64,000 bases of DNA. It comes from Escherichia phage DCP2. Position 1 is the first letter of the stretch. Every line of letters begins with the position of its first letter. Positions 2,386 through 61,321 of the stretch are shown here, one piece after another. A program made the translations under genes and the position numbers. The notes beneath the pieces were generated by a model that saw only the letters and a program-made list of their open reading frames with translations, did no database searches and was not told the DNA's origin. The DNA lies in the sequence record OR780565.1. One strand, given 5' to 3'.

Positions 2386-3126
2386 ATGATTAGTGACTCT
2401 ATGACAGTTGAAGAAATCCGTCTTCATTTGGGGCTTGCATTAAAAGAAAAAGATTTCGTAGTTGATAAAACCGGGGTTAAAACTATTGAAATTATTGGCG
2501 CATCATTTGTAGCAGATGAACCGTTTATTTTTGGCGCTCTTAATGATGAATACATTCAACGTGAACTTGAATGGTATAAGTCTCAAAGTCTGTTTGTTAA
2601 AGATATTCCAGGCGAAACGCCAAAGATTTGGCAACAGGTAGCATCTTCTAAAGGTGAAATTAACTCGAATTATGGTTGGGCTATCTGGTCAGAAGATAAC
2701 TATGCCCAGTATGATATGTGTTTAGCTGAACTTGGTCAAAATCCTGATTCTCGCCGCGGTATCATGATTTATACTCGTCCATCCATGCAGTTTGACTACA
2801 ACAAAGATGGTATGTCAGATTTCATGTGTACGAATACAGTACAGTACCTGATTCGTGATAAGAAAGTCAATGCAGTAGTAAGCATGCGTTCAAATGACGT
2901 GGTCTTTGGATTCCGTAATGATTATGCATGGCAAAAATACGTACTAGATAAATTAGTATCTGATTTGAATGCAGGTGATTCAACTCGTCAGTATAAAGCA
3001 GGTTCCATTATATGGAATGTCGGGAGCCTTCATGTGTATTCCCGTCATTTTTATTTGGTTGACCATTGGTGGAAAACTGGCGAAACTCATATTGCGAAAA
3101 AAGATTATAACGGTGAGTGGAAATGA
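2386..3126 (+). CDS. 42: dCMP hydroxymethylase gp42
   Basis: 246 aa; N-terminus MISDSMTVEEIRLHLG and thymidylate-synthase-like core match T4 gp42. Confidence 0.93.
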   Translation: MISDSMTVEEIRLHLGLALKEKDFVVDKTGVKTIEIIGASFVADEPFIFGALNDEYIQRELEWYKSQSLFVKDIPGETPKIWQQVASSKGEINSNYGWAIWSEDNYAQYDMCLAELGQNPDSRRGIMIYTRPSMQFDYNKDGMSDFMCTNTVQYLIRDKKVNAVVSMRSNDVVFGFRNDYAWQKYVLDKLVSDLNAGDSTRQYKAGSIIWNVGSLHVYSRHFYLVDHWWKTGETHIAKKDYNGEWK

Positions 3127-3965
3127 TTCAATTCGTAATTCCAAGTTATCAACGCGTAGGGGCAGTTTCTGCCCTTGATATGTTTCCGACTGATTATGAA
3201 CCTCATATTGTAGTACGTGAACACGAAGAAAAAGCTTATTATGACGCTTACGGGTCTAGAGCTAAAATTGTAGTTATTCCCGATGATGTAAATGGAATTG
3301 CTGGAACTCGTAAAGCAATTACTGATATGTATGCAGGTCAGCGAATTTGGATGATTGATGATGATACTACTATTCGTATGAGTTCAATGCGAAAGAAAGA
3401 TGATCGTCGCTGCGTAGATAAAATTAATCAGTTAACTCGTGAACAGTTCTATGAATTGATTCAATACGTTGAAGATGCCATGGATTGCGGGTATTATCAT
3501 GGTCATGCTCGTTTACCTATTTTTAAAATTACTTCATCTTGGGGTAATTATCGTGAAAATTCATATGGATTCACGAATACATGGTATGACCTTGGAAAAC
3601 TTACAACAGAACAAATTGGGTATGGAAAAATTGATTTATGCGAAGATATGTATGCATTTCTCAATTTAATTAATCAAGGTTATCCGCATTTGGCCTTGTT
3701 CAAATATCTGGTTGTATCCGGAAAAGCACAAGCTCCTGGCGGATGCAGCTCAATTCGTAGTAATTCTAAACATAATAGAGCTCTTGAGCAAATCAATAAA
3801 GAGTTTCCAGAGCAAGCTCGTTGGAAAACTTCTAATATTGAAAAACGAAAATCATTAGGTGAAGAAGACGAGCCATTAAAGGTTCTTCGCATGTGTGTTT
3901 CACGCAAAGAAAAGTCAGAAGCATTTCATAAGTTTAATGCTATTCATCCAATAGCAGTTGATTAA
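3117..3965 (+). CDS. putative DNA glycosyltransferase occupying the beta-gt locus (GT-A-like, DxD motif)
   Basis: 282 aa ORF between 42 and uvsX; IWMIDDDTTIR DxD-type motif; unlike T4 beta-gt (351 aa); likely the T2/T6-type beta-glucosyl-HMC-alpha-glucosyltransferase. Confidence 0.55.
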   Translation: MEMIQFVIPSYQRVGAVSALDMFPTDYEPHIVVREHEEKAYYDAYGSRAKIVVIPDDVNGIAGTRKAITDMYAGQRIWMIDDDTTIRMSSMRKKDDRRCVDKINQLTREQFYELIQYVEDAMDCGYYHGHARLPIFKITSSWGNYRENSYGFTNTWYDLGKLTTEQIGYGKIDLCEDMYAFLNLINQGYPHLALFKYLVVSGKAQAPGGCSSIRSNSKHNRALEQINKEFPEQARWKTSNIEKRKSLGEEDEPLKVLRMCVSRKEKSEAFHKFNAIHPIAVD

Positions 3966-9662: not shown

Positions 9663-11002
<1,340 letters not shown>

Positions 11003-11062: not shown

Positions 11063-11581
11063 ATGGCATACTTTAATGAATGTTCACAACTGATTGAAGG
11101 CGCTGATAAAGCTCAAAACGAATACTGGGATATTCTCGGTGATGAAAAAGACCCGCTGCAAGTTATGCTTGATATGCAGAAATCTCTGCAGGTTCGTTTA
11201 GCTAAAGATAAACCTGAATATAACCGTCATCCTGATGATTTGGCTACTGCGGGTGAAGTTGTTGATTGGCTGCGTAATCAGAAAGATTATATTGATGATG
11301 AATTCCGCGAACTATTGACTTCTCTTGGTGGTATGAGCAATGGTGAAAAAGATGCATCTGCTGTATGGAAGCCTTGGAAAGCTCAACATGGTGAACGACG
11401 TGAAACTCTGATTACTGATTTGTCTCCACAAGACCAGTTGGAAATTAAATTCGAAATGATTGATATTCTTCATTTCGTTCTGAACATGTTCCAAGGTCTC
11501 GGTCTTACGGCTGAAGAAATCTTTAAACTTTATTATCTGAAAAATGCTGAAAACTTCGCTCGTCAAGACCGAGGTTATTAA
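11063..11581 (+). CDS. 56: gp56 dCTPase/dUTPase (dCTP pyrophosphatase)
   Basis: 172 aa from ATG with AAAGGA RBS; MazG-like; matches T4 gp56. Confidence 0.9.
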   Translation: MAYFNECSQLIEGADKAQNEYWDILGDEKDPLQVMLDMQKSLQVRLAKDKPEYNRHPDDLATAGEVVDWLRNQKDYIDDEFRELLTSLGGMSNGEKDASAVWKPWKAQHGERRETLITDLSPQDQLEIKFEMIDILHFVLNMFQGLGLTAEEIFKLYYLKNAENFARQDRGY

Positions 11582-11781
11582 TGGCTCGTTTAAATAAACG
11601 TCAACTTAAGAAAGCCCACAAGAAACGTATTGACCAGCTATTTAAAAATTATGACAAGGAGCTCACATACGAGCTCCTATCTAATCAGCTCCACAAAGCT
11701 TACACAATTAAAACTGGACATATACAATTAGGTAAGGTGCATGAAGAAGCCTTAAAATTAATTATAGAGCATTCAAAATGA
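11581..11781 (+). CDS. hypothetical basic protein (66 aa)
   Basis: ATG overlaps gp56 stop; Lys/Arg-rich. Confidence 0.5.
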   Translation: MARLNKRQLKKAHKKRIDQLFKNYDKELTYELLSNQLHKAYTIKTGHIQLGKVHEEALKLIIEHSK

Positions 11782-11965
11782 AATTTGATTTTTATGCATG
11801 GCAAAAAGCCGGGAGACCGGCTAGTTGAGCATTTGGTTCTGATGGATATAATATTAGAGCTCATTGGAAGTTTAATGCTCCAGCCGATTATTCTCCGGTA
11901 ATTATTAACGGTGATGTTGTTATATTAACTAAAATTGGGTATTTTAACGTTCCGCAAGAATTTAT

Positions 11966-11973
11966 TATAAATA
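11966..11973 (+). promoter_or_regulatory. T4 late promoter (TATAAATA) for soc
   Basis: Exact TATAAATA octamer about 30 bp upstream of soc ATG; soc is a late gene. Confidence 0.6.
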
Positions 11974-22667: not shown

Positions 22668-22719
22668 AGCTTTATGATTACTGGAGTATAATATTCCCGA
22701 AACCAAACGAGGATAAGTG

Positions 22720-24537
22720 ATGATTAAGAATGAAATTAAAATTCTGAGCGATATTGAACATATCAAAAAGCGTAGCGGCATGTACATTGGTTCTTCTGCT
22801 AATGAAATGCATGAGCGCTTTCTGTTTGGTAAATGGGAAAGTGTTCAGTATGTACCTGGTCTTGTTAAGCTTATTGATGAAATTATCGATAACTCAGTAG
22901 ATGAAGGTATTCGTACTAAGTTTAAATTCGCAAATAAAATTAATGTTACCATTAAAAATAATCAGGTAACAGTTGAAGATAACGGTCGTGGTATTCCACA
23001 GGCGATGGTTAAAACACCTACCGGTGAAGAAATTCCTGGTCCTGTTGCTGCCTGGACTATTCCAAAAGCAGGTGGTAACTTTGGTGATGATAAAGAACGC
23101 GTCACCGGCGGTATGAACGGTGTTGGTTCTAGTTTAACTAACATTTTTTCTGTGATGTTTGTCGGTGAAACTGGCGACGGTCAAAATAATATTGTGGTTC
23201 GCTGCTCGAATGGCATGGAAAATAAATCATGGGAAGATATTCCTGGAAAATGGAAAGGAACTCGCGTTACTTTCATTCCTGATTTTATGTCATTTGAAAC
23301 TAATGAGCTATCTCAAGTTTATCTTGACATTACACTAGATCGTCTCCAGACACTTGCGGTAGTTTATCCTGATATTCAATTTACCTTTAATGGTAAAAAG
23401 GTTCAGGGTAATTTTAAGAAATATGCACGCCAATATGATGAACATGCTATTGTTCAAGAACAAGAAAATTGTTCTATTGCGGTTGGTCGTTCACCGGATG
23501 GTTTTCGTCAATTAACATACGTCAATAACATTCATACTAAGAATGGTGGCCATCACATTGACTGTGTTATGGATGATATTTGTGAAGACCTTATTCCACA
23601 AATCAAACGTAAATTCAAAATTGATGTAACTAAAGCACGTGTTAAAGAATGTTTGACTATCGTTATGTTTGTCCGTGATATGAAAAACATGCGATTTGAT
23701 TCTCAAACTAAAGAGCGTTTGACTTCTCCATTTGGTGAAATTCGTAGTCATATTCAGCTTGATGCTAAAAAGATTTCACGTGCTATTTTGAATAATGAAG
23801 CAATTTTAATGCCAATCATTGAAGCTGCTTTGGCTCGTAAATTGGCGGCAGAAAAAGCAGCAGAAACTAAAGCAGCTAAAAAGGCTTCTAAAGCTAAGGT
23901 TCATAAACATATTAAAGCGAATCTTTGTGGTAAAGATGCTGACACTACTCTTTTCTTGACTGAGGGTGATTCTGCTATTGGATATCTTATTGATGTTCGT
24001 GATAAAGAACTTCATGGTGGTTATCCATTGCGTGGTAAAGTTCTTAACAGTTGGGGTATGTCATATGCTGATATGCTTAAAAACAAAGAACTATTTGATA
24101 TTTGCGCAATCACTGGATTAGTTCTTGGTGAAAAAGCTGAAAACTTGAATTATCATAATATTGCAATTATGACCGATGCTGACCATGATGGTCTAGGAAG
24201 CATTTATCCTTCTCTGCTCGGATTTTTTAGTAATTGGCCAGAATTGTTTGAACAAGGAAGAATTCGCTTTGTCAAAACTCCTGTAATCATCGCTCAGGTA
24301 GGTAAAAAACAAGAATGGTTTTATACAGTCGCTGAATATGAGAGTGCTAAAGATGCTCTACCTAAACATAGCATCCGTTATATTAAGGGACTTGGCTCTT
24401 TGGAAAAATCTGAATATCGCGAGATGATTCAAAACCCAGTATATGATGTTGTTAAACTTCCTGAGAACTGGAAAGAGCTTTTTGAAATGCTCATGGGAGA
24501 TAATGCTGACCTTCGTAAAGAATGGATGAGCCAGTAG
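22720..24537 (+). CDS. 39: DNA topoisomerase II large subunit gp39, uninterrupted (605 aa)
   Basis: GHKL ATPase and TOPRIM regions in a single ORF that includes the part encoded by separate gene 60 in T4. Confidence 0.92.
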   Translation: MIKNEIKILSDIEHIKKRSGMYIGSSANEMHERFLFGKWESVQYVPGLVKLIDEIIDNSVDEGIRTKFKFANKINVTIKNNQVTVEDNGRGIPQAMVKTPTGEEIPGPVAAWTIPKAGGNFGDDKERVTGGMNGVGSSLTNIFSVMFVGETGDGQNNIVVRCSNGMENKSWEDIPGKWKGTRVTFIPDFMSFETNELSQVYLDITLDRLQTLAVVYPDIQFTFNGKKVQGNFKKYARQYDEHAIVQEQENCSIAVGRSPDGFRQLTYVNNIHTKNGGHHIDCVMDDICEDLIPQIKRKFKIDVTKARVKECLTIVMFVRDMKNMRFDSQTKERLTSPFGEIRSHIQLDAKKISRAILNNEAILMPIIEAALARKLAAEKAAETKAAKKASKAKVHKHIKANLCGKDADTTLFLTEGDSAIGYLIDVRDKELHGGYPLRGKVLNSWGMSYADMLKNKELFDICAITGLVLGEKAENLNYHNIAIMTDADHDGLGSIYPSLLGFFSNWPELFEQGRIRFVKTPVIIAQVGKKQEWFYTVAEYESAKDALPKHSIRYIKGLGSLEKSEYREMIQNPVYDVVKLPENWKELFEMLMGDNADLRKEWMSQ

Positions 24538-47542: not shown

Positions 47543-48192
47543 TTAAACTCCGCATGCCTGCTGGTGGTGAAAGATACATTGATGGTAAATCAGTTTATAA
47601 ATTATACTTAATGATAAAACAACATATGAATGGAAAGTATGATGTAATTAAGTATAATTGGTGCATGCGGGTGTCTGATGCCGCTTATCAAAAGCGAAGG
47701 GATAAGTATTTTTTCCAGAAGTTATCAGAAAAATATAAATTAAAGGAACTTGCTTTAATCTTTATAAGCAATCTGGTTGCTAACCAGGATGCTTGGATTG
47801 GTGACATCTCTGACGCTGATGCACTTGTGTTTTATCGTGAATATATCGGACGCTTAAAGCAAATTAAATTTAAGTTTGAAGAAGATATTCGCAACATTTA
47901 TTATTTTAGTAAAAAAGTTGAAGTTTCTGCTTTTAAAGAAATCTTTGAGTATAATCCAAAAGTTCAATCAAGTTATATTTTTAAACTACTTCAATCGAAT
48001 ATAATTTCGTTTGAGACGTTTATCTTGCTTGATTCGTTTTTAAATATAATCGATAAACATGATGAACAGACTGATAATTTAGTCTGGAATAATTATTCTA
48101 TAAAGTTAAAAGCTTATAGAAAAATTTTAAATATTGATTCACAGAAAGCTAAAAGTGTTTTCATTGAAACTGTGAAATCTTGCAAGTATTAA
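47539..48192 (+). CDS. 59: gp59 helicase loader
   Basis: 217 aa, ATGA overlap with 33; matches T4 gp59. Confidence 0.88.
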   Translation: MIKLRMPAGGERYIDGKSVYKLYLMIKQHMNGKYDVIKYNWCMRVSDAAYQKRRDKYFFQKLSEKYKLKELALIFISNLVANQDAWIGDISDADALVFYREYIGRLKQIKFKFEEDIRNIYYFSKKVEVSAFKEIFEYNPKVQSSYIFKLLQSNIISFETFILLDSFLNIIDKHDEQTDNLVWNNYSIKLKAYRKILNIDSQKAKSVFIETVKSCKY

Positions 48193-48193
48193 T

Positions 48194-48826
48194 ATGAATA
48201 TAGTATATTGGTTTACATTTGAAGACCGTGTCAAAAATAAGACTCCGCCGTACTACTATATCGGCAGTAAATTAAATTGCTCATTTGAAAATGGAATAAT
48301 ATATGACTCTTCCGGAAAGGAATACTGGAGTTCATGTAAACAAAAGAGATTTTTAAATGCGGTAATGCTTCAAAAACCGAGCGTTAAAATAATTCAAATT
48401 GATGATGATTTGGATGTTATTGAAGCAGAGCGAAAATACCAACTTGAAGTAAATGCCAGAGATAATCCAGACTATTTTAATCTGGTATATGCTGGCGGCG
48501 GATTTGGTGTGAGTGGTGAAACTCATCCAGCCAAAGACCCGGAAGTTAGAGAGCATATGAGATTGGCTAATTATATGAACCGTGACGATTTTAGACCTTG
48601 GAAAACATCACGAGCTAATATAGAGTCTTGGAAATTATCTCATATTGCTTACGAGAATTATGTGTTATTATTATCCTCTAATCTGTACGGTAAAACTCCT
48701 GGATGGCGAAGAGTTAAAGGTAATATAAATATAACTGATGCAACTGCTAAATCAATGGTAAAGTATTTCAACTCAGGTTGGATACCTCTCGAAGACCCAG
48801 AGTATTGCGAATTATGCCAGCTATGA
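48194..48826 (+). CDS. putative free-standing GIY-YIG-like endonuclease (210 aa) between 59 and 32
   Basis: N-terminus IVYWFTF...(11 aa)...YYIGSK resembles GIY-x(10-11)-YIG; locus corresponds to T4 segG (32.1). Confidence 0.45.
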   Translation: MNIVYWFTFEDRVKNKTPPYYYIGSKLNCSFENGIIYDSSGKEYWSSCKQKRFLNAVMLQKPSVKIIQIDDDLDVIEAERKYQLEVNARDNPDYFNLVYAGGGFGVSGETHPAKDPEVREHMRLANYMNRDDFRPWKTSRANIESWKLSHIAYENYVLLLSSNLYGKTPGWRRVKGNINITDATAKSMVKYFNSGWIPLEDPEYCELCQL

Positions 48827-48876
48827 GGTAAAGTGTCATAGCACCAACTGTTAATTAAATTAAAAAGGAAATAAAA

Positions 48877-49785
48877 ATGTTTAAACGTAAATCTACTGCT
48901 GAACTCGCTGCACAAATGGCTAAACTGGCTGGAAATAAAGGTGGTTTTTCTTCTGAAGATAAAGGCGAGTGGAAACTGAAACTCGATAATGCGGGTAACG
49001 GTCAAGCAGTAATTCGTTTTCTTCCGTCTAAAAATGATGAACAAGCACCATTTGCACTTCTTGTAAATCACGGTTTCAAGAAAAATGGTAAATGGTATAT
49101 CGAAACATGCTCATCTACCTACGGTGATTACGATTCTTGTCCAGTATGTCAGTACATCAGTAAAAATGATTTGTACAACACTGACAATAAAGAGTATGGT
49201 CTTGTTAAACGCAAAACTTCTTACTGGGCTAACATTCTTGTTGTAAAAGACCCAGCTGCTCCAGAAAATGAAGGTAAAGTATTTAAATATCGTTTCGGTA
49301 AGAAAATCTGGGATAAAATCAATGCAATGATTGCAGTTGATGTTGAAATGGGTGAAACTCCGGTTGATGTAACTTGCCCGTGGGAAGGTGCTAACTTTGT
49401 ACTGAAAGTTAAACAAGTTTCTGGTTTTAGTAACTACGACGAATCTAAATTCCTGAATCAATCTGCGATTCCAAACATTGACGATGAATCTTTCCAGAAA
49501 GAACTGTTCGAACAAATGGTTGACCTTTCTGAAATGACTTCTAAAGATAAATTCAAATCATTTGAAGAACTGAGCACTAAGTTCAGTCAAGTTATGGGAA
49601 CTGCTGCTATGGGCGGTGCCGCAGCAACTGCCGCTAAGAAAGCTGATAAAGTTGCTGATGATTTGGATGCATTCAATGTTGATGACTTCAAAACAAAAAC
49701 TGAAGATGATTTTATGAGCTCAAGCTCTGGCAGTTCATCTAGTGCTGATGACACGGACCTGGATGACCTTTTGAATGACCTTTAA
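48877..49785 (+). CDS. 32: gp32 single-stranded DNA-binding protein
   Basis: 302 aa; near-identical to T4 gp32 incl. zinc site [14 protein letters not shown] and acidic C-terminus. Confidence 0.95.
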
Positions 49786-51743: not shown

Positions 51744-51763
51744 AATAACACGTGGCGGAAAAT

Positions 51764-52111
51764 ATGAGCTTTAATTATTACCCTATTCTATTAGAAAAAG
51801 ACGCGAAACAGCCAAAATGGCAGGGTCCTCAGTTTATTAAAGGCGTCTATCAATTAGTAGTTCCTAAAGACAAGATTTATAGTAGTTGTTTCACTGAATC
51901 CGCTTGCAGTATTTTCGGTAATAGTTCTCCGTATTGGAATTTTGATATAAAGCTTGACAGAAATATCGATATTTGGTTGAAAGCTATGGATATTGGCAAT
52001 ATCACGTTTGATGAGAATAATTATCATATTATTGGTCGCTTTTCCAAGCGTGGTAAAGAATTATATTTCACGCCTGAAATTGAAAGAAAATTTGACGCTA
52101 AACCGTATTGA
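51764..52111 (+). CDS. hypothetical protein (115 aa) inserted between frd and td
   Basis: ORF fills a roughly 410 bp gap where T4 frd and td overlap; no recognisable motif. Confidence 0.5.
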   Translation: MSFNYYPILLEKDAKQPKWQGPQFIKGVYQLVVPKDKIYSSCFTESACSIFGNSSPYWNFDIKLDRNIDIWLKAMDIGNITFDENNYHIIGRFSKRGKELYFTPEIERKFDAKPY

Positions 52112-52156: not shown

Positions 52157-53017
52157 ATGAAACAATACCAAGATTTAATTAAAGACATTTTTGAAAATGG
52201 CTATGAAACTGATGACCGAACAGGCACAGGAACAATTGCTTTGTTCGGTACTAAATTACGCTGGGATTTAAGTAAAGGTTTTCCTGCAGTAACGACTAAG
52301 AAGCTCGCCTGGAAAGCTTGCATTGCTGAGCTAATATGGTTTTTATCGGGAAGCACAAATGTCAATGATTTGCGATTAATTCAACATGATTCATTAATTC
52401 AAGGCAAAACAGTCTGGGATGAAAATTACGAAAATCAAGCAAAAGATTTAGGATACCATAGCGGTGAACTTGGTCCAATTTATGGAAAACAATGGCGTGA
52501 TTTTGGCGGTGTAGACCAAATTGTAGAAGTTGTTGATCGTATTAAAAAACTGCCGAATGATAGGCGTCAAATTGTTTCTGCGTGGAATCCAGCTGAACTT
52601 AAATATATGTCATTACCGCCTTGTCATATGTTTTATCAGTTTAATGTGCGTAATGGATATTTGGATTTGCAGTGGTATCAACGTTCGGTAGATGTTTTTC
52701 TTGGTCTTCCATTTAATATTGCATCATATGCTGCGTTAGTTCATATTGTAGCTAAGATGTGTAATCTTATTCCAGGAGATTTGATATTTTCTGGTGGTAA
52801 TACTCATATCTATATGAATCACGTAGAACAATGTAAAGAAATTTTGCGTCGTGAACCTAAAGAGCTCTGTGAACTGGTAATAGGCGGATTGCCTTATAAA
52901 TTCCGCTATCTTTCTACTAAAGAACAATTGGAATACATTCTTAAACTCAGGCCTAAAGATTTCGTTCTCAAAGATTATCAGTCCCATGGTGTCTTGAAAG
53001 GAAAAATGGCGGTGTAA
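52157..53017 (+). CDS. td: thymidylate synthase, intronless
   Basis: 286 aa continuous ORF with conserved TS core (LPPCHMFYQF). Confidence 0.93.
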   Translation: MKQYQDLIKDIFENGYETDDRTGTGTIALFGTKLRWDLSKGFPAVTTKKLAWKACIAELIWFLSGSTNVNDLRLIQHDSLIQGKTVWDENYENQAKDLGYHSGELGPIYGKQWRDFGGVDQIVEVVDRIKKLPNDRRQIVSAWNPAELKYMSLPPCHMFYQFNVRNGYLDLQWYQRSVDVFLGLPFNIASYAALVHIVAKMCNLIPGDLIFSGGNTHIYMNHVEQCKEILRREPKELCELVIGGLPYKFRYLSTKEQLEYILKLRPKDFVLKDYQSHGVLKGKMAV

Positions 53018-55889: not shown

Positions 55890-57068
55890 ATGAGCACAGT
55901 TTTTAATACAAATCCAGTTGATGTTTTAAAAGAACCTATGTTTTTTGGTTCAGGTCTTGGTATTGCGCGTTATGATATTCAACGTCATAAAGTTTTTGAA
56001 GATTTAACCGAAAAGCAGTTGTCATTTTTCTGGCGTCCTGAAGAAGTAAACTTAATGATGGATGCTGCGCAATTTAATAAGCTTCCTCAGTATCAGCAAA
56101 ATATTTTTACTAATAACCTGAAGTATCAATCACTTTTGGATAGCATTCAGGGTCGTGCGCCGTCTGCTGTACTTATGTCATTAATTTCAGACCCAAGCCT
56201 TGATACATGGGTTGCTACGTGGACTTTTAGTGAAACTATTCACAGCCGTTCATATACACATATCATGCGAAATCTTTATACTGATCCATCGAAAGTATTT
56301 GATGAAATTGTATTAGATGAAGCTATTATGAAACGTGCTGAATCCATTGGACGTTATTATGATGATGTTCTTAAGAAAACCCGTGAATGGGAAAATGCTA
56401 AAGAATTTGTAGAACTAGCTAAAGAATCTCCTGATGCTGATTTTCGTTTAAATCGAGCTATTAAACAAGAAGCCGAAGCTAAACGAGCACTAATGAAATC
56501 TCTTTATCTTTGCCTTCATGTAATCAATGCATTGGAAGCTATTCGTTTTTATGTATCTTTCGCATGTACCTTTAACTTCCATAAGAACATGGAAATCATG
56601 GAAGGTAATGCCAAGATTATGAAGTTCATTGCGCGTGATGAGCAGCTTCACCTTAAAGGCACTCAATATATTATTCGTCAACTTCAACTTGGCACTGATG
56701 GTGATGAATGGGTTAAAATTGCTCAAGAGTGTGAACAAGAAGCAGTTGATATTTTCATGGAAGTTAACCGCCAAGAAAAAGACTGGGCAGTTCATTTATT
56801 TAAAGATGGTGATGTTCCTGGATTAAATACAAATAGCATGTGGAGCTTTATTGATTACTTAACTGTATCTCGTATGAAACAGTGCGGTCTTCCATGCCCA
56901 ATTACTGATGCTCCGGTTAAACATCCGTATCCTTGGATTCGTGAATACCTTAATTCTGATAATGTTCAATCCGCGCCGCAAGAAGTAGAACTGTCATCTT
57001 ACCTTGTAGCACAGATTGATAATGATGTTGATGATAAAGTTATGATGAGTTTTAAAAAATATTTTTAA
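55890..57068 (+). CDS. nrdB: ribonucleotide reductase small subunit, intronless
   Basis: 392 aa continuous ORF, ferritin-like di-iron motifs. Confidence 0.92.
   Translation: MSTVFNTNPVDVLKEPMFFGSGLGIARYDIQRHKVFEDLTEKQLSFFWRPEEVNLMMDAAQFNKLPQYQQNIFTNNLKYQSLLDSIQGRAPSAVLMSLISDPSLDTWVATWTFSETIHSRSYTHIMRNLYTDPSKVFDEIVLDEAIMKRAESIGRYYDDVLKKTREWENAKEFVELAKESPDADFRLNRAIKQEAEAKRALMKSLYLCLHVINALEAIRFYVSFACTFNFHKNMEIMEGNAKIMKFIARDEQLHLKGTQYIIRQLQLGTDGDEWVKIAQECEQEAVDIFMEVNRQEKDWAVHLFKDGDVPGLNTNSMWSFIDYLTVSRMKQCGLPCPITDAPVKHPYPWIREYLNSDNVQSAPQEVELSSYLVAQIDNDVDDKVMMSFKKYF

Positions 57069-60114: not shown

Positions 60115-60118
<4 letters not shown>
59888..60118 (+). CDS. hypothetical protein (76 aa)
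   Basis: ATGA overlap. Confidence 0.45.

Positions 60119-61321
<1,203 letters not shown>

Follow-up and report, generated by a model that had tools for sequence, protein, structure and literature searches.

The open reading frame (ORF) at positions 48194 to 48826 (+) in Escherichia phage DCP2 is, with a probability that we put at about 0.95, segG, the free-standing GIY-YIG homing endonuclease gene that sits in the spacer between genes 59 and 32 of a T4-like phage (Tequatrovirus). All coordinates given here refer to the window, the 64-kb stretch of DCP2 DNA that was analyzed. The frame runs uninterrupted through 210 codons, from an ATG at 48194 to a TGA at 48824 to 48826, and the ORF listing reproduced exactly the coordinates and the slot between genes 59 and 32 that an initial annotation of the stretch had given for it. 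To the left of the insertion lies gene 59 (48192 is its last position and 47539 its first; + strand), which encodes a helicase loader 99.5% identical to T4 gp59. To the right lies gene 32 (48877 to 49785, +), an ORF for the 302-amino-acid gp32 and the published target gene of SegG (PMC2988022 Table 1). The order across this part of the window is gp34 (minus strand), rnh, dsbA, 33, 59, segG, 32, the frd.3-to-frd.1 region, frd, and td; the T4 gene order around segG is thus kept, read on the opposite strand. The gene itself is already known, having been experimentally characterized in T4 (2003), and it is annotated in more than 100 genomes.

The identification is carried by comparison with T4. 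An alignment with T4 SegG (NP_049855), which the initial annotation had proposed as a check, gave 208 of 210 identical amino acids with no gaps and equal length, the differences being L57V and T183A, and the proposal that a Seg-type endonuclease fills the segG slot of T4 was borne out by it. Near-identity of this degree places the feature far beyond chance. At the DNA level the gene is 97.8% identical to T4 segG, with 14 nucleotide differences, 12 of them synonymous, and it is 100% identical to the copy in Salmonella phage Lv5cm. The protein also matched PHROG 7504, "homing endonuclease," from end to end (E value of 1e-132). Near-identity, equal length, and the same 59/segG/32 slot and orientation together support the DCP2 ORF as the orthologue of T4 segG.

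The signature motif is a poorer guide than the alignment, and the IVY/YIG strings alone are weak evidence because Pfam finds no GIY-YIG domain in the protein even at an E value of ≤10. The initial annotation had read the N terminus as a GIY-x(10-11)-YIG signature. The strings that it named are present, with IVYWFTF at residues 3 to 9, the 11 residues EDRVKNKTPPY at 10 to 20, and YYIGSK at 21 to 26, but the spacing does not hold, since 16 residues lie between Y5 and Y22; the apparent 11-residue match arose because the count began at the end of the 7-residue string. Counted on the sequences, the corresponding gap is 10 residues in I-TevI, 10 in SegA, and about 12 in SegF. The Pfam scan suggested for the GIY-YIG domain thus came back with 0 families, precomputed Pfam domains are lacking in all 29 homologues, and an NCBIfam scan of the ORF gave 0 matches. 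When the 27-sequence family was compared by hhalign with single sequences of I-TevI, SegF, and SegA, the similarity was insignificant (probability of <2%), and single-sequence templates are probably too thin for such a comparison. A PDB sequence search with SegG returned only a chance lectin match (E value of 1.1). The missing Pfam match is a limit of profile sensitivity, not of fold.

The fold was examined in an AlphaFold model of DCP2 SegG, built on 27 homologues and having a mean pLDDT of 90.4, in which two well-ordered domains are joined by a linker that is disordered at residues 103 to 108. The N-terminal catalytic domain, about residues 1 to 102 (48194 to 48499, +), is predicted to adopt the GIY-YIG alpha/beta fold, a three-stranded sheet with flanking helices. 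It contains the IVY (48200 to 48208), the YIG (48257 to 48265), E79 (48428 to 48430), and N96 (48479 to 48481), all on the + strand. The model has a short helix at residues 10 to 15 in the connection between beta1 and beta2 and a small beta-hairpin at residues 30 to 37; both are inserted relative to I-TevI, and the long GIY-to-YIG spacing is attributed to them. A flexible linker of about residues 103 to 112 (48500 to 48529, +) follows, where pLDDT falls below 50 at 103 to 108 and the alignment is gapped and variable. The remainder, about residues 113 to 210 (48530 to 48823, +), is a helical, HTH-like, putative DNA-binding domain, and in the alignment it is the C-terminal domains that differ between branches of the SegG family.

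Conservation in the family was examined for a GIY-YIG active site. Among the 27 homologues, P19, Y22, I23, G24, S25, K26, C29, Y44, S47, E79, N96, and A100 are invariant, Y5 and R12 are each conserved in at least 90%, and R52, at the start of helix 51 to 59, was counted on the alignment in about 20 of the 27. R52 is a tentative candidate for the conserved catalytic Arg of the first helix, a role for which K26 and R12 may also come into consideration. The invariant set includes a putative catalytic Glu with a downstream Asn, E79 and N96. By position and pattern, E79, which the model places in helix 75 to 85 after strand 63 to 70, and N96 would correspond to E75 and N90 of I-TevI. Around N96, the SegG block EAERKYQLEVNARDNPDYFNLVYAGGGFG matches by eye the SegA block DAERELVTIDVVNDPMTYNLKIGGEGG, with the shared pattern AER...DP..(Y/F)NL..(G/A)G.G, and this is the sole stretch that hhalign pairs with SegA. 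Foldseek against the PDB gave nothing significant, with I-TevI ranking 2 to 4 at an E value of about 2 and TM-scores of 0.50 to 0.58 normalized to the target. Against the predicted viral structures of BFVD, the matches were Seg-like, GIY-YIG, and NUMOD3 phage endonucleases, which links SegG structurally to Seg-like proteins.

The negative Pfam and NCBIfam scans, the insignificant Foldseek result against the PDB, the noncanonical motif spacing, and a C-terminal half that resembles HTH DNA-binding domains would all sit comfortably with a protein that is not a GIY-YIG enzyme, in which IVY and YIG are coincidental and the fold or role is another one, for example that of a DNA-binding regulator of gene 32. 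We rejected "not a nuclease" as a reading of this ORF, whose T4 counterpart is listed as an active free-standing GIY-YIG homing endonuclease with gene 32 as its target (PMC2988022 Table 1), and we consider the chance that it is right to be negligible. An inactive relic is the other alternative, an ORF kept only for the gene 32 promoters and the part of the gene 32 pseudoknot that it contains. Essential regulatory elements of gene 32 are indeed embedded in segG, two substitutions separate the protein from T4 SegG, and damaged copies exist: in IMG/VR record L005 (1818 to 2448) segG is frameshifted and split into two frames, and in phage AugustSocin (record L089, 695 to 1329) it is longer by 2 bases, and its truncated CDS is annotated only from about codon 58. 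Judged from these sequences, natural copies of the endonuclease gene do decay. Against decay in DCP2, however, stand a reading frame that is intact across 633 nucleotides, the retention of every family-invariant residue, and 99% identity to an enzyme active in T4. Furthermore, 11 intact segG alleles differ from one another at 31 nucleotide sites, of which 24 are third codon positions, and at just 7 amino acid positions; the gene is under purifying selection. The intact frame, the third-position variation, and the retained invariant residues led us to reject the pseudogene relic, which we regard as very improbable.

Four regulatory elements are found in and beside segG, and all four are present in DCP2 in a form identical to that in T4. 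A T4 middle-promoter pattern, GCTT-N14-TATAAT, lies in the 3'-terminal part of gene 59 (48027 to 48050, +) and is likely the segG promoter; the annotation of phage SA20RB has a middle promoter of the T4 type at the equivalent place. Inside segG, GCTT-N15-TATTAT (48647 to 48671, +) is a candidate middle promoter for gene 32, the exact site being our inference from the pattern. Gene 32 also has a T4 late promoter within segG, TATAAATA (48724 to 48731, +), and the SA20RB record has a late promoter annotated at the equivalent position. The 5' pseudoknot that is the translational operator of gene 32 mRNA spans 48815 to 48842 (+), and the final codons of segG, with the stop, share sequence with its 5' strand; for its stems we presumed the assignment made for the T2/T4 pseudoknot. 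The embedded late promoter and the pseudoknot overlap are thus common to DCP2 segG and its T4 counterpart (gene 32.1). In the published accounts, segG is a cassette that lacks its own promoter, is transcribed from one near the 3' end of the gene upstream, and carries the promoters of gene 32 for middle and late transcription, its transcript being processed by RNase E (PMC2988022), and the gene 32 mRNA pseudoknot overlaps ORF32.1/segG (PMC535899). Because segG carries these promoters and part of the pseudoknot, its deletion would be discouraged. An Rfam scan of 48000 to 49000 came back without a family that covers the gene 32 pseudoknot, and a sigma-70 promoter scan was uninformative (7 sites, with 8.1 expected), the middle and late promoters of T4 being of another type. 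In the spacer between segG and gene 32 (48850 to 48876), 5 nucleotides (AATTA after ...CTGTT) are deleted relative to T4, which leaves one AAUUA-type repeat fewer; the deletion falls in the A/U-rich gp32 translational operator, and the pseudoknot itself is unchanged.

Read as segG, the ORF would take its mechanism from T4. In crosses of T4 with T2, SegG accounts for the exclusion of the gene 32 of T2 (PMC2988022, PMC2330249, and PMC535899, all citing Liu et al. 2003, J Mol Biol 334:13), and the statement in the initial annotation that SegG drives exclusion of gene 32 alleles agrees with that work. Super-Mendelian inheritance is likewise on record for mixed infections of T4 with T2 (PMC2988022 and PMC2330249). 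Free-standing endonucleases cut hundreds of base pairs from their own gene, and for that reason the gene itself passes to the progeny only if resection extends as far as the gene (PMC2988022). From its near-identity to the T4 protein, DCP2 SegG would consist of an N-terminal GIY-YIG nuclease connected through the flexible linker to a C-terminal helical DNA-binding domain, and the middle promoter at the end of gene 59 would transcribe segG together with its neighbors. In a mixed infection with a relative that has no segG, the enzyme may be expected, by analogy, to make a site-specific double-strand break in the relative's gene 32. Recombinational repair from the segG genome would then copy gene 32 sequence, and sometimes segG too, into the recipient, and the outcome would be local marker exclusion with co-conversion tracts of variable length. 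Cleavage, target site, and mobility are in this way carried over to the DCP2 allele from the T4 literature. SegG reportedly (abstract of a 2003 study) cuts 332 bp from the insertion site, a distance that would correspond to about 49155 to 49165, and we take the expected cut region in the window to be about 49135 to 49185. None of the papers found by our literature search, Liu et al. 2003 being outside its scope, gives the sequence of the SegG cut site.

The distribution of segG among phages is uneven. It is carried by 140 to 141 GenBank phage records at 95 to 100% identity, under the names "SegG" or "homing endonuclease" or as a hypothetical protein. In about 358 records with flanks at the same 95 to 99% identity, genes 59 and 32 are joined and the distance between them is 585 bp shorter; the spacer measures 99 bp in T2 and RB32. 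Presence/absence polymorphism with conserved flanks, as read from these records, is the pattern of a free-standing homing endonuclease gene. An IMG/VR search with gp32 yielded mostly distant relatives and only 4 close ones, and GenBank phage records were used instead; in that IMG/VR sample, no SegG homologue was found between genes 59 and 32 where gp32 was ≤81% identical.

Alignment of gene 32 from 13 segG carriers and 4 segG-less phages revealed a graded series of haplotypes next to segG. T4, HP3, and IMG/VR records L007 and L005 share AA at 48928-9, a 3-nucleotide deletion at 48940-42, C at 49171, and A at 49198. The tract of T4-type sequence stops at points closer and closer to segG in PST, Sf24, SsoM_113, and pSe_SNUABM_01, and in AugustSocin, SA20RB, HY01, Lv5cm, and DCP2 it is wholly absent. 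Nested tracts of this kind are as expected from co-conversion of variable length and would fit double-strand-break repair. DCP2 gene 32, especially over 48906 to 49200, has GC at 48928-9, an extra GGT at 48940-42, T at 49171, and G at 49198, and it is identical to T2 over 49121 to 49196. The extra GGT accounts for a gp32 of 302 amino acids, as in T2, whereas the gene 32 beside segG in T4 is T4-like and encodes 301. By identity over 48650 to 49210, the 140 segG-positive records divide into about 14 with the DCP2 haplotype, a few intermediates, and about 120 that are T4-like; on this count, segG beside a T2-like gene 32, as in DCP2, is a minority haplotype, roughly 10% of segG carriers. A separate difference lies at gp32 codon 82 (49120 to 49122; His81 in T4 numbering), in the zinc-binding subdomain, where DCP2 has Tyr (TAC) and T4 and T2 have His (CAT/CAC); the T at 49120 also occurs in Lv5cm, HY01, SA20RB, and IMG/VR record L006. 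The zinc ligands in the gp32 crystal structure are His64, Cys77, Cys87, and Cys90, and since His81 is not among them, the change to Tyr is probably neutral.

The T2-like haplotype bears on the state of SegG's own target. If the figure of 332 bp is correct, DCP2 has T2-type sequence at its own SegG target, and if the T2-type sequence is the sensitive substrate, phages of the DCP2 type would carry SegG together with a gene 32 that it can cleave. We consider that combination doubtful. Were it true, either self-cleavage would be tolerated through repair from a sister copy, or protection would not be based on polymorphism of the target.

SegG can be placed among the other T4 endonucleases as follows. 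SegA and SegF, like SegG, are two-domain, free-standing proteins, and a Y.GS(G/S) block is shared by eye. They differ from SegG in that sequence-profile similarity to it is insignificant, in their motif spacing (10 to 12 residues versus 16), in their C-terminal domains, and in their targets, which are uvsX for SegA and gene 56 for SegF as opposed to gene 32 for SegG. The catalytic domain of I-TevI (PDB 1LN0/1MK0) is 17% identical to SegG, which has in addition the helix in the beta1-beta2 loop and the hairpin insertion at 30 to 37. I-TevI is intron encoded, whereas SegG is free-standing, and the cut site lies about 25 bp from the gene for I-TevI and hundreds of base pairs from it for SegG (PMC2988022). 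Much more divergent SegG-like proteins, homologous to SegG in the N-terminal domain, also occupy the 59/32 slot in Dhakavirus Bp7 (record L095; 58% identity) and Gaprivervirus vB_EcoM_RZ (L096; 39% identity). In the same slot, gp32.1 of VR7 (L097) is 53% identical over the N-terminal half only and has a different C-terminal domain. Other proteins with only the N-terminal domain of SegG are found beside gene 49 or rpbA. These relatives suggest repeated invasion of the 59/32 site by the SegG family or long residence there, with swapping of DNA-binding domains.

The rest of the window was compared with the corresponding T4 regions by BLAST and by ORF checks. The interval where segF would lie (11544 to 11966) has only a 66-amino-acid ORF, and segF was not in the window. 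Neither was the td intron with I-TevI, td being an uninterrupted ORF of 286 amino acids (52157 to 53017), nor the nrdB intron with I-TevIII, nrdB being an uninterrupted ORF of 392 amino acids (55890 to 57068). We found no mobE between nrdA and nrdB of the window and no segA in it. Also missing from the window are mobA, 60.1, and the 50-nucleotide translational bypass element of gene 60, and a single 606-amino-acid ORF (22717 to 24537, +) spans T4 genes 39 and 60, with the junction near 24137 to 24202. The lack of segF and of the td and nrdB intron endonucleases had been asserted from the sequence by the initial annotation and was confirmed here; its description of the homing endonuclease content as mosaic is fair, segG being the only T4 homing endonuclease gene kept in the 64 kb.

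Several ORFs in the window depart from T4 in other ways. Between gene 42 and uvsX, where T4 has beta-gt and segA, DCP2 has a T2/T6-type beta-glucosyl-HMC-alpha-glucosyltransferase (3117 to 3965, +; PHROG 842, E value of 1e-89), and glucosylation of DCP2 DNA is therefore probably T2/T6-like, not T4-like. Directly upstream of dam, and with its stop codon overlapping the dam start, lies a 186-amino-acid ORF (9663 to 10223, +) that is not in T4. About 154 Tequatrovirus records contain it, a T2 record among them, and all of these label it "hypothetical protein." It has subthreshold Pfam similarity to DpnII (a GATC-cutting restriction enzyme; E value of 0.005), BanI, and HSDR_N, as well as a D...E-I-K motif typical of PD-(D/E)xK nucleases. 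Judged from its sequence, the product might act as a nuclease alongside the phage Dam methylase, or it might be a homing endonuclease of a different type. A 119-amino-acid ORF between frd and td (51752 to 52111, +) belongs to PHROG 1928, of unknown function, and has no T4 counterpart there; T2 also has an ORF between these genes. A 100-amino-acid ORF between pseT.1 and pseT (60115 to 60417, +) likewise has no T4 counterpart at its position.

As a discovery, segG in DCP2 carries little weight, being an ordinary and well-known gene. Its combination with a T2-type target haplotype poses a small question about self-cleavage. The presence of an intact segG in a phage without the segA, segF, mobA, mobE, I-TevI, and I-TevIII of the equivalent T4 stretch illustrates how patchily, gene by gene, these selfish elements are distributed, and the nested gene 32 haplotypes offer a view, in natural populations, of the co-conversion tracts that were earlier seen in laboratory crosses.
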